The notes below the pieces were generated by a model, which saw only the letters and a list, made by a program, of their open reading frames with translations, made no database searches and was not told the origin of the DNA. A stretch of 52,246 nucleotides of DNA from Clostridia bacterium. Lineage in GTDB: Bacteria > Bacillota > Clostridia > Christensenellales > UBA1242. Shown here piece by piece: positions 7,794-23,114 of the stretch (within the stretch, counting starts at the first letter, position 1; each line of letters begins with the position of its first letter). Both the position numbers and the translations under genes were made by a program. Location of the stretch: the NCBI GenBank assembly GCA_963930145.1, contig CAWVLM010000065.1, positions 1 through 52,246 of the forward strand, in the 5' to 3' direction.

Positions 7794-7979
7794 ATAGATA
7801 TTATAAACAAAAACTCCTTATTTTACAAGCAAAAGAGTTGCGAGCGATGGGTTTAATAAAAAATAAACTGTAAAGATAATTTAATATACAAATTTTTGTG
7901 TTAACTTTTATTTAAACCAAAAATTTTTCCAATCATGTAAAAAAAATTAAAAAATTTTTAAAAAATTTGTTAAAAATGC

Positions 7980-8010
7980 TTGACATGGGTTGCGGGGGGG
8001 GCGGTATACT
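7980..8010 (+). promoter_or_regulatory. sigma-A type promoter with a G8 tract in the spacer (P1)
   Basis: TTGACA 7980-7985 and TATACT 8005-8010. The 19-bp spacer contains GGGGGGGG at 7994-8001. An A/T-rich UP-like region lies upstream. The cassette is duplicated at 13676-13728. Confidence 0.6.
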
Positions 8011-8061
8011 AGTAGCGTAAAGATAGCCGCCATAGGCGGCTATCGCGAGCAGCTTATGCCG

Positions 8062-8153
8062 CGAGAGCGAATGTACAAACTCCAACGGAGTTTGTAAAAG
8101 GCTGACGCCTTTGGTAAATTTTTGCAGGGCAAAAATTTACACATTCGCTCTCG
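8062..8153 (+). repeat. four-way-junction (cloverleaf-like) palindromic element, copy II, in the 5' UTR of the 8219 gene
   Basis: Perfect 13-bp closing stem 8062-8074/8141-8153. Arms at 8075-8095 (9 bp), 8097-8112 (6 bp) and 8115-8139 (10 bp), with linkers of 0-2 nt. Confidence 0.6.
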
Positions 8154-8218
8154 GGCATAGGCCCGCTCGCCGAGTTAAAAAATTTTGGGGTTACCCCAGT
8201 AATAAAAGGAGAAAAATT

Positions 8219-9217
8219 ATGAGTTTTAAAATTAAGTTAATTTCAACAGTATCAGCATTTATTTTAGTATTTAGCATGCTTTTAGTAGGCGTGTTGGCTA
8301 CAACATCAGGGTTTACTATAAAATTAAAAGGCGATATTCAATTCAATATAGCAAATTCAACACTATATATAAAAGATATAAGAATATCAAATGGTTTAAC
8401 AGAAGGCGAAACAATAGATAATTTTTTGCCAAGCTTTGTTAATGAAAATTTTGAACTTGATTTAGGCACAGTTTTATCTGATAGTGGAACAGTATCCATT
8501 GAAATTGATGTTATTAACACAACGGAGACAGTATATAGTGCGAGTAGTAAGTCAAGTATAGCAGGTGCAGTTTTATCTGTCAGCGGGACTATTGCAGGTG
8601 ATAATGTGCCTCAAGAGAATGTTTTATCATACACAGGAATTTCTGGGACAGTGCACATTAGTATAAGTGCTGCTAGTTCTACAACGATAAACTTAAATGA
8701 GATAGTTGTAGATATGGCAGAAACAACAGAGCCCATTGGCTACACATTGACACTTAATAACAATGATAGTGACATAGAAGTATGGTATAAAACAGATATA
8801 AATAGTTTAAATTATAGCATACTTGACTCAAATAGCAGTGTCGAGATAAATACAAACAATTCAGATAGCTTTTACCTATATCTCACACTTAACGATGACC
8901 CTTATCCTTTTAAAGATAAAACAGAGTCTAGTTCTGAGGCTGCTTCAATAGAACCGCGTAAGTATGTTCTTAATTACCCTGTAAGTGTAAACGATGTTTT
9001 AATAGGTACATTATTATATGTGCAATCTAGTGTATTGCCGAGTACACAATATGAAGCAAACGAAGGAAGTGCAGAAGTTGGAAAGCCTGGAATTAATGTG
9101 GCGATGGAAGTTTCAGTTTCGGCAGCAGAAAATGATGTGGTGGAGACATCGGTGGACGAGTCGGGAACTATTTTAATTTGCAAAATAACAAAATCTTTAG
9201 TTATAGATATTAGATAA
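8219..9217 (+). CDS. secreted or surface protein of unknown function, paralog group with 13809..14378
   Basis: ATG at 8219 follows AAAAGGAGAAAAATT. N-terminal signal peptide MSFKIKLISTVSAFILVFSMLLVGVLA. The part of the ORF-track entry upstream of 8219 (TTG at 8111) overlaps the structured leader and is probably not translated. Confidence 0.75.
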   Translation: MSFKIKLISTVSAFILVFSMLLVGVLATTSGFTIKLKGDIQFNIANSTLYIKDIRISNGLTEGETIDNFLPSFVNENFELDLGTVLSDSGTVSIEIDVINTTETVYSASSKSSIAGAVLSVSGTIAGDNVPQENVLSYTGISGTVHISISAASSTTINLNEIVVDMAETTEPIGYTLTLNNNDSDIEVWYKTDINSLNYSILDSNSSVEINTNNSDSFYLYLTLNDDPYPFKDKTESSSEAASIEPRKYVLNYPVSVNDVLIGTLLYVQSSVLPSTQYEANEGSAEVGKPGINVAMEVSVSAAENDVVETSVDESGTILICKITKSLVIDIR

Positions 9218-10650: not shown

Positions 10651-10810
10651 AAATGCTCCTTTAAGGTTGTAAATTATAGAGAAGATACAAAAAACATTGT
10701 TTGCCACACTTTTATACAAATAAATAATAAAACAAAGCTATAAAAAGTCAAAATAAAATGAAATAGTTTTTACAAAATTGCCATATTTTTATGAAAAAAG
10801 CAGTGAAGGG

Positions 10811-11150
10811 TTATACAGTTATCCACAAAAAGTTATCCACATATCCACATGTAAATATTTATACATAAGTGTTAATTTTTATGCAAAATCGGGTATTTTG
10901 ACGATTTTGGGGGTTATCCATGGCAAGTTATCCACATTTCCACATTGATTTTTCATGAATTTGGCTTAAAACAAGCAAATTTCAAAATAATTTTTAAAGA
11001 TTGTTTTAAAAACTTTGATAATTTTCTTGACTTTTTTAAATTGATTTTTTTGTCAAAATTTAAAAGTTTGAGATAGTTATTATTTAATATATAATTTAAA
11101 AGGTTTTTTGCATAATTATAAACAAACTTTAATAAGTTATCCACATTTTT
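10811..11150 (+). promoter_or_regulatory. DnaA-box cluster with adjacent AT-rich tract (oriC-like region)
   Basis: Perfect TTATCCACA at 10819-10827, 10833-10841, 10928-10936 and 11137-11145, all in the same orientation. Near-matches at 10811, 10841, 10914 and 10936. The interval 10950-11130 is almost pure A/T. Confidence 0.6.
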
Positions 11151-13475: not shown

Positions 13476-13700
13476 ATTTGCTTAGAAAACTAACCCTAAA
13501 TCGCATCAAAAACTTTTTTTGCTTGCAAAATGTTGTTTTGATTTAAAATTATATCATATTCACTGACAAAAGTCAAGAAAGAAGCCGCCCTAGAGAGAAT
13601 ATAATAAGCCGCTTAGGAAAGAGTCATCTCAAATACAACATATAAGATAATAATATGAAAAATAAAAAATAAAAAAATTTAAAAAAATTGTTAAAAATGC

Positions 13701-13728
13701 TTGACAAACGTTGCGGGGGGGGTATAAT
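13701..13728 (+). promoter_or_regulatory. sigma-A type promoter with a G8 tract in the spacer (P2)
   Basis: TTGACA 13701-13706 and TATAAT 13723-13728. The 16-bp spacer ends in GGGGGGGG (13715-13722). The upstream 25 nt are near-identical to P1. Confidence 0.65.
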
Positions 13729-13808
13729 AGGGTAACTTAAAAATATAATATCATTTTTATTGCCCGAAAATGATATGAATATATTTTAAGTTTAAAAGGA
13801 GAAAAAAT

Positions 13809-14378
13809 ATGAGTTTAAAATTAAAATTAGCAACAAGTATCAGTGCCTTTTTTCTAGTTCTTGCAATGCTTGTCACAGGCGTGTTTGCTGCAAGAAACTT
13901 AGAATTTAACTTTGGCGGCACAGTAAACTTTGAAGCTCTCAGCGGCGAAATCGACGCACTTGTTACTGGTGAAGTAACAGGCACAGCCACACCAATAACA
14001 CTTGAAGATATATCAATAGAGCAAGGGACAGAAACTGTAACTGTTCCACTTTCATGGCAAAACATGGACTTAACTTATGCAAAAGATGGAAAACAAATAG
14101 TTTTAACAATATCTGTGCAAAATAGACGTTCTGATAGAGATTTAGAAGCTATTATATCTATGGAAGGCCTTGCAGCTAGCGAAGAACAGGCTGGAGAAGA
14201 CAATGTATATGGGTTTTTTGGCAATGTACCACCATCTAGTAGTGAAACTTTATCTATTAAACCAAATCAATCAGGTGAAGTTGACTTTAGAATAAACATA
14301 GTAGATAAATTCGCACCTGTTGATAATGTCAACGTAACATTCACAATTTCGCTGCAAGACAGAGAGCCAACAGCATAA
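13809..14378 (+). CDS. secreted or surface protein of unknown function, paralog of 8219..9217
   Basis: Same RBS context (AAAAGGAGAAAAAAT ATG). Signal peptide MSLKLKLATSISAFFLVLAMLVTGVFA aligns with that of the 8219 gene. Confidence 0.75.
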   Translation: MSLKLKLATSISAFFLVLAMLVTGVFAARNLEFNFGGTVNFEALSGEIDALVTGEVTGTATPITLEDISIEQGTETVTVPLSWQNMDLTYAKDGKQIVLTISVQNRRSDRDLEAIISMEGLAASEEQAGEDNVYGFFGNVPPSSSETLSIKPNQSGEVDFRINIVDKFAPVDNVNVTFTISLQDREPTA

Positions 14379-14402
14379 ACCTTTTTAATGACATAATTTT
14401 TT

Positions 14403-14431
14403 AAAGACAGAAAGGGCAATCTGTCTTTTTT
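14403..14431 (+). terminator. intrinsic terminator
   Basis: AAAGACAG pairs with CTGTCTTT, followed by a T-run. Confidence 0.6.
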
Positions 14432-14474
14432 AATATGCGGTTTTTAATATTAAACATCATCAAAAAACTTCATT

Positions 14475-17228: not shown

Positions 17229-17555
17229 TTAACGTTTTTTATTTTCATGTATTTTCTTTCGATATTCTTCAGCACGTTTTGCACCGCGTTTGATTTTATA
17301 CTCTATCATTTCATCAACTTTTTCGCTGCCAAACATAAGCCTTATCTGTTCTGCGCATATCAGCACATCAGCTGTCTCTTCTATGATGTTTTCTTTAACT
17401 TTTTCCATTTTTTCGTCATTTCCTATCGCACGAAAATACTTACAAAGTTCTTTGGTAAGCTCACTCATCTCTTCAATGCATATCATAATTTGTGCTTGCT
17501 CACCAAAGGTCTCATTATAATTTTTATAGCACTTTTCTCGCTCTTCTCTGTCCAT
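17229..17555 (-). CDS. MazG-like nucleotide pyrophosphohydrolase family small protein
   Basis: 108 aa. EExxE...EExxD signature (CIEEMSELTKEL ... IIEETADVLICAEQI). Confidence 0.65.
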   Translation of the reverse strand: MDREEREKCYKNYNETFGEQAQIMICIEEMSELTKELCKYFRAIGNDEKMEKVKENIIEETADVLICAEQIRLMFGSEKVDEMIEYKIKRGAKRAEEYRKKIHENKKR

Positions 17556-17596
17556 CTTTTCTTCCTTTTAATTAAGAAGTTTTAAGAATGATTTGT

Positions 17597-17917
17597 TCAA
17601 ATCCTAGTTTTTTTACTTTCCATGTTTTTCTTTTCAGCTCTTTTCAAGGCCCTGTCTAATTTATATTGTTTGATATCATTGATTTTGTCTTGACCAAACA
17701 TATATGAAAGCTGCCCCATATTTATTGACACATCTGCAAGCTCTTCTTGCAAGTTTTCTAGTGCCTTTTGAATTTCAAGTTCATCTCCTGTTGCAACTTT
17801 ACGCTTATATTTGCATATCGCTTGCAATAATTCGCCCATCTCTTCAATAGCACATTGAAATTGTGTTTCTTCGCCAAACGTATCTAAAAAAATCTTATAA
17901 TATTCTTCGTCTTTCAT
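17597..17917 (-). CDS. MazG-like nucleotide pyrophosphohydrolase family small protein (tandem paralog)
   Basis: 106 aa. AIEEMGELLQAI ... LQEELADVSINMGQL. Clearly related to the adjacent 17229..17555 product. Confidence 0.65.
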   Translation of the reverse strand: MKDEEYYKIFLDTFGEETQFQCAIEEMGELLQAICKYKRKVATGDELEIQKALENLQEELADVSINMGQLSYMFGQDKINDIKQYKLDRALKRAEKKNMESKKTRI

Positions 17918-22382: not shown

Positions 22383-22459
22383 CGCGGGATGGAGCAGCTC
22401 GGAAGCTCGTCGGGCTCATAACCCGAAGGTCGTTGGTTCAAATCCAACTCCCGCAACCA
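22383..22459 (+). tRNA. initiator tRNA-fMet (anticodon CAT)
   Basis: 77 nt, very close to E. coli tRNA-fMet as I recall it. It has the C1xA72 mismatch, three G-C pairs in the anticodon stem (TCGGGCTCATAACCCGA) and an encoded CCA. Confidence 0.9.
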
Positions 22460-22466
22460 TAAAAAA

Positions 22467-22496
22467 AGTTGGGCATTTTTGCCCAACTTTTTTATT
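22467..22496 (+). terminator. intrinsic terminator after tRNA-fMet
   Basis: AGTTGGGCA pairs with TGCCCAACT, followed by TTTTTT. Confidence 0.7.
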
Positions 22497-22515
22497 GCGG
22501 GAATCAACTTTAGTT

Positions 22516-22596
22516 ATGACCTTCGGGCTATATCGAAACAAAGTGAAGATATAACCTTCGTATTCGGTTGTTAGTTAATAAAAACTCCCGCAACCA
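22516..22596 (+). repeat. tRNA-fMet-derived degenerate unit 1
   Basis: ATGACCTTCGGGCTATATCGAAACAAAGTGAAGATATAACCTTCGTATTCGG...ACTCCCGCAACCA. A complement to the 3' acceptor strand (TTGCGGGA) lies at 22495-22502. Terminator-like hairpin at 22606-22630. Confidence 0.7.
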
Positions 22597-22641
22597 AAAC
22601 GAAGGTTAGACATAAGTCTAATCTTTTTTATTTATCAACAT

Positions 22642-22719
22642 TTGACCTTTGGGCTATATCGAAACAAAGTGAAGATATAACCTTCGTATTCGGTTGTTAG
22701 TTCAGCACTCCCGCAACCA
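22642..22719 (+). repeat. tRNA-fMet-derived degenerate unit 2
   Basis: Same ~50-nt core as units 1 and 3 and the same ...ACTCCCGCAACCA end. A hairpin-rich tract follows, then a terminator at 22822-22846. Confidence 0.7.
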
Positions 22720-22856
22720 AGTCGCAAACTACGCTTAGGCAAGAATTGCACACGCAATTCGTTGCGGTGTCGCTGGTTTGCTCCTTTAACCCCACAAATC
22801 TTACGATTTGCGGGGAGCCTCACGGACTTCATAAGTCCGTTTTTTATTAAAAAATT

Positions 22857-22938
22857 ATGACCTTTGGGCTATATCGAAACAAAGTGAAGATATAACCTTC
22901 GTTTTCGGTCGTTGGTTCAATAAGAACTCCCGCAACCA
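22857..22938 (+). repeat. tRNA-fMet-derived degenerate unit 3
   Basis: Its 3' half (GGTCGTTGGTTCAATAAGAACTCCCGCAACCA) and the terminator after it (AGTTGGGCGATTTACCCAATTTTTTT) parallel the genuine tRNA 3' half and its terminator. Confidence 0.7.
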
Positions 22939-23114
22939 TGAAAAAGTTGGGCGATTTACCCAATTTTTTTATATTTCTTATATTTTCTTTTAGAATGTAA
23001 ATCTTTTTTGCCATATACAAAGTAAAACTCATTTAATCTATCTTTTGGTAAAATTAGCTAAGGGTTGACAAAAATTATAAAATATTATAAAATTAAGCAT
23101 AAAGTAGGTTATAT

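Follow-up and report, generated by a model that had tools for sequence, protein, structure and literature searches.

In Neisseria meningitidis, a homopolymer in the spacer between the −35 and −10 boxes of the promoter, poly-G for porA and poly-C for opc, grades the expression of an outer-surface protein from high through intermediate to none. Among gut commensals, phase variation has been mapped mostly via invertible promoters and methylation, and the switches known in Clostridia are, to our knowledge, DNA inversions, such as those of C. difficile cwpV and flgB. Insertions and deletions in the promoter spacer switch transcription of the mycoplasma genes vlp, maa2 and vmm on and off (PMC2268961, citing Citti & Wise 1995). 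In Bordetella pertussis, a C-stretch in a conserved promoter element controls transcription of fim2, fim3 and fimX, and even between short tracts, such as C7 and C8, a change in length alters the amount of transcript (PMC1891110). Here, we analyse a run of eight guanines (G8) in the promoter spacer of a gene for a 189-residue protein, which forms part of a repeated promoter cassette in a 52,246-nt stretch of Clostridia DNA (assembly GCA_963930145.1, contig CAWVLM010000065.1; the whole stretch is referred to as the window).

The cassette resembles the systems of vlp (M. hyorhinis), maa2 (M. arthritidis) and vmm (M. mycoides) in that a genome has several such genes and every one of them has a homopolymer of its own in the promoter spacer, and it resembles vlp further in having a highly conserved 5′ region of promoter and signal peptide followed by mature domains that diverge. 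It differs from vlp in its tract, which is poly-G where mycoplasmas have poly-A/T, and in its host, a walled, spore-forming lineage of Clostridia. The products are no lipoproteins, as they lack a lipobox and are predicted to be cleaved at V-x-A↓A; their genes are dispersed between housekeeping genes instead of forming a cluster, and switching is here a proposal from sequence. The Bordetella fim genes are likewise paralogous genes for subunits of surface structures, each with a C/G homopolymer just 5′ of the −10 box. There, however, the tract lies between the site of the activator BvgA and the −10 box, whereas the present tract has a consensus −35 box on one side and the −10 box on the other, with no activator implied, and the proteins are unrelated. 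The likeness to porA and opc is the G/C homopolymer in the −35/−10 spacer itself, but these are single genes without a shared 5′ module, in Gram-negative pathogens, and their tracts are longer (9–14). The mechanism as such is long established; the novelty lies in its probable presence in an uncultured lineage of spore-forming Clostridia, together with the portable 5′ module and an unannotated protein family.

The promoter cassette and its repetition

The gene for the 189-residue protein forms a self-contained transcription unit (13660–14438, plus strand; all unit features below are on this strand) with a near-consensus σA-type promoter. An A/T-rich, UP-like region (13660–13700) ends in GTTAAAAATGC directly before the −35 hexamer TTGACA (13701–13706), which is followed by a 16-bp spacer (13707–13722) made up of AACGTTGC and G8, and by the −10 hexamer TATAAT (13723–13728). 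A consensus scan scored this promoter 12/12. The G8 tract (13715–13722) thus sits between the −35 and −10 boxes of a recognisable promoter, fills the −10-proximal half of the spacer and abuts the −10 box. The strong ribosome-binding site AAAGGAG (13795–13801; GGAG at 13798–13801) lies 7 nt 5′ of the ATG at 13809, and the coordinates given in a preliminary description of the window were correct throughout.

That description had called the promoter a second copy of a poly-G cassette, and the comparison of the two copies bears this out. The first copy (7939–8010, plus strand) consists of an UP-like region, TTGACA (7980–7985), TGGGTTGC, G8 (7994–8001), the trinucleotide CGG and TATACT (8005–8010); because CGG intervenes between G8 and TATACT, its spacer is 19 bp rather than the 16 bp of the second copy. 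It precedes an ORF (open reading frame) for a 332-residue, multi-domain β protein (8219–9217, plus strand) whose signal peptide is of the same type, and it has the same ribosome-binding site. The conservation of UP-like region, ribosome-binding context and signal peptide, also claimed earlier, was measured with a repeat finder as 84% identity over 63 nt (7939–8001 and 13660–13722) and 86% identity around ribosome-binding site and start codon (8203–8239 and 13793–13829), and over 27 residues the signal peptides agree at 56% of positions. Promoter, ribosome-binding site and signal peptide are certainly common to the two genes. The two tracts are also the only runs of seven or more G in the 52-kb window, where 0.34 would be expected, and none of 100 shuffled sequences matched the observed count.

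The cassette recurs well beyond the window. A scan of metagenomes matched a single sample, ERZ1090861, in which seven contigs of broadly similar coverage (21–43×) each carried it, so that we count at least seven cassettes in that genome. These read TTGACG-TGGGTTGC-G8 and then, without a gap, TATACT or TATAAT, with one copy TAGGTTGC. The closest assembled genome among the matches listed, a metagenome-assembled genome (MAG) of the uncultured Clostridia bacterium BRZ_CD__bin5, has at least three intact cassettes and a degenerate one upstream of the ortholog of the first-copy gene. A distant relative of 1051 residues, with BspA-type leucine-rich repeats (LRR; LRR_5), is preceded by TTGACA-AAAAGTC-G9-T-TAAAAT, with a 17-bp spacer, 5′ of a long leader. 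The UP-like region is kept in the related loci L001–L006 and L123–L132, and in related loci G runs of seven or more are confined to cassettes. Wherever the contig was long enough and an ORF was present, that ORF began MSLK-x-KL-[IV]-S..SAF.L.L.ML..GV.A; no such signal-peptide ORF was found within the 420 nt scanned after the cassettes of L011, L052, L060 and L129. Promoter, ribosome-binding site and signal peptide are thus a conserved 5′ module placed before many different surface-type proteins.

Variation in tract length

The number of G's in the tract differs between natural samples. At the P0006 locus, which is the ortholog of the 189-residue gene at the same position in a fourth species, one and the same protein is preceded by G6 in L133 and by G7 in L135 and L136, and contig L134 starts exactly past the tract; a fifth species has G7. 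At two paralogous loci, again with identical proteins, the tracts are G9 (L117), G7 (L118) and G8 (L128) for P0027, and G10 (L121) and G8 (L122) for P0039. The upstream flanks are near-identical at the loci where tract length differs. Overall, the orthologous and paralogous tracts span G6 to G10, and the lengths observed give spacers of 14 to 19 bp, with a mode of 16 bp (G8).

We consider it reasonably probable that these differences reflect a contingency locus, in which slipped-strand events vary the phase or strength of expression of a repertoire of surface proteins. Mispairing of slipped strands in the tract would add or remove single G's at replication, and the number of G's would determine how far apart the −35 and −10 boxes stand: 16 bp for G8, 17 bp for G9 and 14–15 bp for G6–G7. 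Promoters with G8 or G9 would be ‘on’ and those with G6 or G7 weak or off, and the first copy in the window, with its 19-bp spacer, would be weak or off as well. In this way, transcription could rise, fall or cease for each gene separately, and the state would be inherited. The sequences themselves establish the anatomy of the cassette, its repetition, its conserved geometry and the polymorphism in tract length between natural samples; on the switch reading, a change in length would alter transcription, and switching would be frequent and reversible. The earlier proposal of a homopolymer switch for each gene accordingly keeps its basis in the length polymorphism at orthologous and paralogous loci, but not at the 189-residue locus of the window's own species, where all three sequences available have G8, and the switching itself is an interpretation.

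The main rival to slipped-strand switching is that the tract is a fixed part of a strong, lineage-specific promoter, in which it holds the 16-bp spacer, serves as a signal for a regulator or RNA polymerase, or both. The spacer would then be GC-rich, rigid and sensitive to supercoiling, the genes would encode envelope proteins that are strongly expressed under ordinary regulation, and the observed length differences would be rare mutations or assembly errors. We judge this unlikely, although several observations speak for it and weigh against a switch. In addition to the three sequences from the window's own species, eight from two other species have G8 at the 189-residue locus, which brings the total to 11 of 15 tracts in five species-level groups, and all seven cassettes of the ERZ1090861 genome have G8 as well, where a freely drifting tract would be expected to show more spread. 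The spacing from the −35 box to TTGC and G8 is constant in species with only 50–60% protein identity, and in all seven cassettes of the ERZ1090861 genome. Coverage is very low on some of the deviating contigs, about 3× on the polymorphic contigs L134 and L135, so that single calls of homopolymer length may be errors. In several cassettes, including the first copy, two to four additional bases separate G8 from the −10 box and lengthen the spacer to 18–20 bp, and a switch can accommodate such cassettes only with the extra assumption that the genes concerned are currently off or weak. Finally, G8 is at the short end of the tracts known to switch fast.

Three lines of evidence, on the other hand, argue against a fixed element. 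The first is the occurrence of G6, G7, G9 and G10 in independent samples at the three loci with identical proteins and near-identical upstream flanks. The second comes from the ortholog of the first copy in BRZ_CD__bin5 (L140, about 1255–1290), where T's break the tract (TTGACG-TGGGTTGGGGTGGGTGG-TATACT) and the spacer is nevertheless exactly 17 bp. The G's themselves appear to be dispensable, and the sequence suggests that what the promoter needs is the spacing; L140 looks like a ‘locked’ version of the switch. The third is that promoters of the same design outside the lineage vary freely in G number between orthologs, with pairs of G7/G11, G6/G7, G9/G10 and G6/G8.

These outside promoters came from a scan of a genome collection (L007–L116), whose listed matches included many chance ones in GC-rich genomes. 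Among the sites listed, 24 of 102 TTGACA-N4-TTGC-G(≥6) sites directly precede TAnnnT, compared with 1.3 expected. Poly-G promoter spacers may be widespread in gut bacteria. Sites outside the lineage were seen, again among the matches listed, in Ruminococcus, Oscillospiraceae, Prevotella, Ligilactobacillus and others (for example, L012, L039, L049, L055, L056, L089, L099, L110, L113 and L114), and many lie upstream of genes for signal-peptide proteins.

It could also be argued that the length differences are sequencing or assembly artefacts, and that the cassette is merely a duplicated promoter without special behaviour. Homopolymers are error-prone, the P0006 contigs (L133–L136) are short and of low coverage, and contigs break at the cassette, which a multi-copy repeat of about 90 bp would be enough to cause. 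However, differences of two nucleotides (G9/G7 and G10/G8) come from long contigs (86 kb and 281 kb), and G8 was recovered in 11 independent assemblies of the 189-residue locus, which indicates that assemblers treat the tract consistently. An artefactual origin of the variation is therefore quite improbable in our view. In contigs L124, L126, L127, L134 and L106, one end coincides exactly with the cassette or the G tract, and such breaks fit a multi-copy repeat, a tract of heterogeneous length, or both. Since tracts of this kind break assemblies and can be mis-called, their length should be read from sequencing reads and not from consensus contigs.

The encoded proteins

The ORF at 13809–14378 encodes residues 1–27 with the features of a signal or anchor peptide, followed by an all-β sandwich. 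The sequence V-F-A↓A at the end of this segment satisfies the −3/−1 rule, and residues 1–27 would be either a cleaved signal peptide or a retained anchor. An AlphaFold model (predicted local distance difference test, pLDDT, 79; predicted template modelling score, pTM, 0.72) has an N-terminal helix (residues 3–23) and then nine strands. The 17 homologues of the 189-residue protein are all metagenomic; residues 1–85 are nearly invariant across its family, and residues 110–170 are variable. Neither the two window proteins nor the homologues have a product name in the source annotation, searches of Pfam and NCBIfam with both window proteins found no family, and a sequence profile search of the PDB gave nothing relevant.

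The preliminary description took the genes for members of a small family, which they are not: a profile search of 1.84 billion representatives returned 490 clusters (50% identity) at E ≤ 1e-3, 192 of them at E ≤ 1e-10. The match spans essentially the whole 189-residue protein and is located N-terminally in proteins of 100–1500 residues. BspA-type LRR_5 repeats were present in 27 of the 61 superfamily members examined, C-terminal to the same N-terminal module, and NCBIfam assigns these repeat regions to LRR adhesin models. This is the likeness to the BspA-type LRR and HupY-LrrG adhesins, from which the window protein differs in having no LRR part, consisting of the N-terminal module only, and matching no Pfam or NCBIfam model. 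The 189-residue protein is thus a probable minimal form of an unannotated N-terminal module of what are probably cell-surface proteins, and a surface location for it is argued from the LRR domains that its relatives carry. The earlier designation of the products as variable surface or secreted antigens is sound to the extent that they look exported or surface-located; that they act as surface antigens is presumed.

Whether the two window proteins are paralogs beyond the signal peptide, as was also claimed, was addressed by comparing profiles of their families. The full-length profiles matched with a probability of 98.6%, but this is because the signal peptide drives the score; once it was removed, the probability fell to 3%, and to 17% with a 161-sequence superfamily profile, neither of which is significant. 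BLAST of the mature 332-residue protein against 148 superfamily representatives gave no match. Paralogy is consequently supported for promoter, ribosome-binding site and signal peptide, but not for the mature parts. The two motifs said to be shared by the mature parts do exist in both, and on invariant columns (G37/F41 and N105 in the 189-residue family, G38/F42 and N100 in the 332-residue family) with similar spacing, although the first position of the first motif, F-x-[IF]-x-[LF]-x-G-x-[IV]-x-F, is L and not F in the 189-residue protein. Because of these motifs, and because both models are β sandwiches, a distant homology of the first mature domain is possible, if unproven. None of the outcomes that the preliminary description had named as refuting it was observed: further members exist, tract length is polymorphic, and structure prediction gave β sandwiches for both proteins rather than evidently unrelated folds.

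A last impression, expressly a loose one, that the signal peptides resemble the SipW/TasA type, led us to consider the 189-residue protein as a TasA/camelysin-like fibre subunit processed by SipW, with the cassette as part of a biofilm-matrix system. The signal peptides are indeed loosely like what we take to be that of TasA (K-x-K-L … A-L-V-x-G … A-A), and the stretch immediately after the signal peptide is a strand with alternating hydrophobic residues and a G at its centre. Furthermore, a Foldseek search of the PDB with the 189-residue model placed donor-strand-complemented pilins (self-complemented FimA) at the top, with E = 1e-4. However, the template modelling (TM) scores of these matches are only 0.34–0.39 with root-mean-square deviations above 10 Å, so that, judged on the model, they appear to reflect the generic similarity of immunoglobulin-like β sandwiches, and TasA itself is outside the top 50 fold matches. 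The fold search with the 332-residue model gave no PDB match below E = 1e-3. Neither protein matched the Pfam family Peptidase_M73 (TasA) at E ≤ 1, no SipW-type NCBIfam signal model was matched by the two window proteins at E ≤ 1 or by the 61 relatives at E ≤ 0.1, and a motif of the type A-[YF]-F-[ST]-D after the cleavage site, presumably a mark of SipW/TasA proteins, is absent from the alignment of the 189-residue family. The neighbouring genes are those of a uvrD-like helicase and gyrA, with no signal peptidase. A TasA/SipW identity was rejected, as it failed the Pfam, NCBIfam, PDB profile and fold tests; every test that we ran went against the suggested likeness, and a matrix-fibre function seems very improbable indeed.

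Leaders and transcription units

The leader of the second copy contains a hairpin (13735–13791; minimum free energy −14.2 kcal/mol, z = −3.3) whose loop TTGCCC(G/A)A is conserved and which is retained in five orthologous leaders, with three compensatory pairs. Just 3′ of the stop codon at 14378 lies a terminator-like hairpin of the intrinsic type with a T run (14403–14438; the hairpin is at 14403–14428 in the consensus scan), which indicates that the unit is monocistronic. On the minus strand, a promoter-like site at 13548–13576 (TTGACT, 17-bp spacer, TG-TATAAT; 11/12) faces the gene for the UvrD-like helicase, so that the intergenic region would hold back-to-back promoters.

The leader of the first copy (8011–8218, plus strand) is a long, GC-rich, structured 5′ untranslated region (UTR), comprising a hairpin, a long stem that closes three hairpins, and then the ribosome-binding site. 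Over its approximately 200 nt the minimum free energy is −103 kcal/mol (z = −11), and the structure is kept in seven related leaders, with 15 pairs altered on both sides. Rfam gave only chance matches to this leader at E ≤ 10, and only one tRNA in the whole window at the gathering threshold. Candidate roles, as far as the sequence goes, are those of a stabiliser, an antitermination platform or a riboregulator. We refer to this structure as type A (window 8011–8190; also L140, L011, L052, L060, L125 and L129). A type-B leader follows cassettes ending in TATAAT (L117 5786–5960, L119 5699–5880, L126 and L128); its architecture is that of type A, with a stem CTTAAGAAAAC...GTTTTCTTAAG closing three hairpins, but its sequence differs.

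Inverted repeats bracket the three-hairpin core of the first-copy leader, and in a paralogous leader (L123 5623–5720) the core is reversed with respect to window 8061–8156, the alignment score being 61 for the reverse complement and 29.5 for the forward orientation. An invertible 5′-UTR switch of the C. difficile cwpV type was therefore considered for the first-copy leader and found unsupported at this locus, because its two other sequences, L140 and L141, share the orientation of the window. No functional difference between the two orientations of the core is evident, since the flanking stem is itself an inverted repeat and a hairpin precedes the same T-rich arm either way.

Two further repeated elements accompany some of these loci. 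In L011, L052 and L129, 3′ of the type-A leaders, units of about 26 nt are repeated in tandem, each with ‘CGGACAnn’ followed by a hairpin of 5–6 bp, and the repeat ‘GACCCGCAAGGGGTATATTTTTATGACGTTAAGT’ occurs in three copies in L121 (5000–5700) and in one copy in L142 (480–760). Both are candidates for REP/MITE-like elements (repetitive extragenic palindromic or miniature inverted-repeat transposable elements) or for RNA.

Genomic surroundings

The gene for the 189-residue protein lies between the gene for the UvrD-like helicase and gyrA/gyrB, near a cluster of DnaA-box-like repeats, and in relatives with 55–99% identical protein the gene is in the same place, between uvrD-like helicase and gyrA genes. 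The repeats, of type GTTATCCACA, are at 10778–10948, between hisS and the helicase gene, and this is probably the region of the replication origin. In another Clostridia MAG (L010/L106), a G8 cassette was seen among similar DnaA-like boxes. Related contigs carry the sporulation and germination genes SpoIIR, GerA and YpeB.

Between gyrA and gyrB, the window has two paralogous small ORFs of 108 and 106 residues on the minus strand (17229–17917); the corresponding interval has only a 52-residue ORF called in the related loci L001, L003 and L004, and none in L002. Further along, at 22383–22960, three copies of an element about 80 nt long come after a tRNA-Met (CAT), and each ends in a duplicated T-arm and 3′ acceptor end of the tRNA (…ACTCCCGCAACCA). 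These could be integration remnants at the tRNA or tRNA-derived elements.

Significance

Taken further, the poly-G promoter, the ribosome-binding site and the ‘MSLKxKLIS..SAF.LVL’ signal peptide might constitute a portable expression-and-export module that is fused to hundreds of different surface proteins in a whole group of uncultured gut Clostridia, from minimal forms of 189 residues to LRR adhesins of 1500 residues. In most members it would be coupled to a structured leader of about 150 nt (a hairpin and a stem closing three hairpins, in two sequence types and with no Rfam family) as a second, previously undescribed layer of control. We put this forward tentatively, regarding it as somewhat doubtful in its full extent. 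If true, it would be a combinatorial system of surface variation comparable in scope to the variable lipoprotein systems of mycoplasmas, but in commensal spore-formers. If the spacer tract is a switch repeated before many surface proteins, the signature TTGAC-N8-Gn-TAnnnT could be used to mine metagenomes for contingency loci, and the unannotated N-terminal domain family, with its 490 clusters, would be flagged as a probable surface-display module. That comparable poly-G promoters exist in other Firmicutes and in Bacteroidota is a hint that phase variation of this kind is common in the gut and has been overlooked. A spacer switch of this sort in the lineage would give bacterial surfaces another widespread means of becoming heterogeneous, which would matter for evasion of phages and of the immune system.

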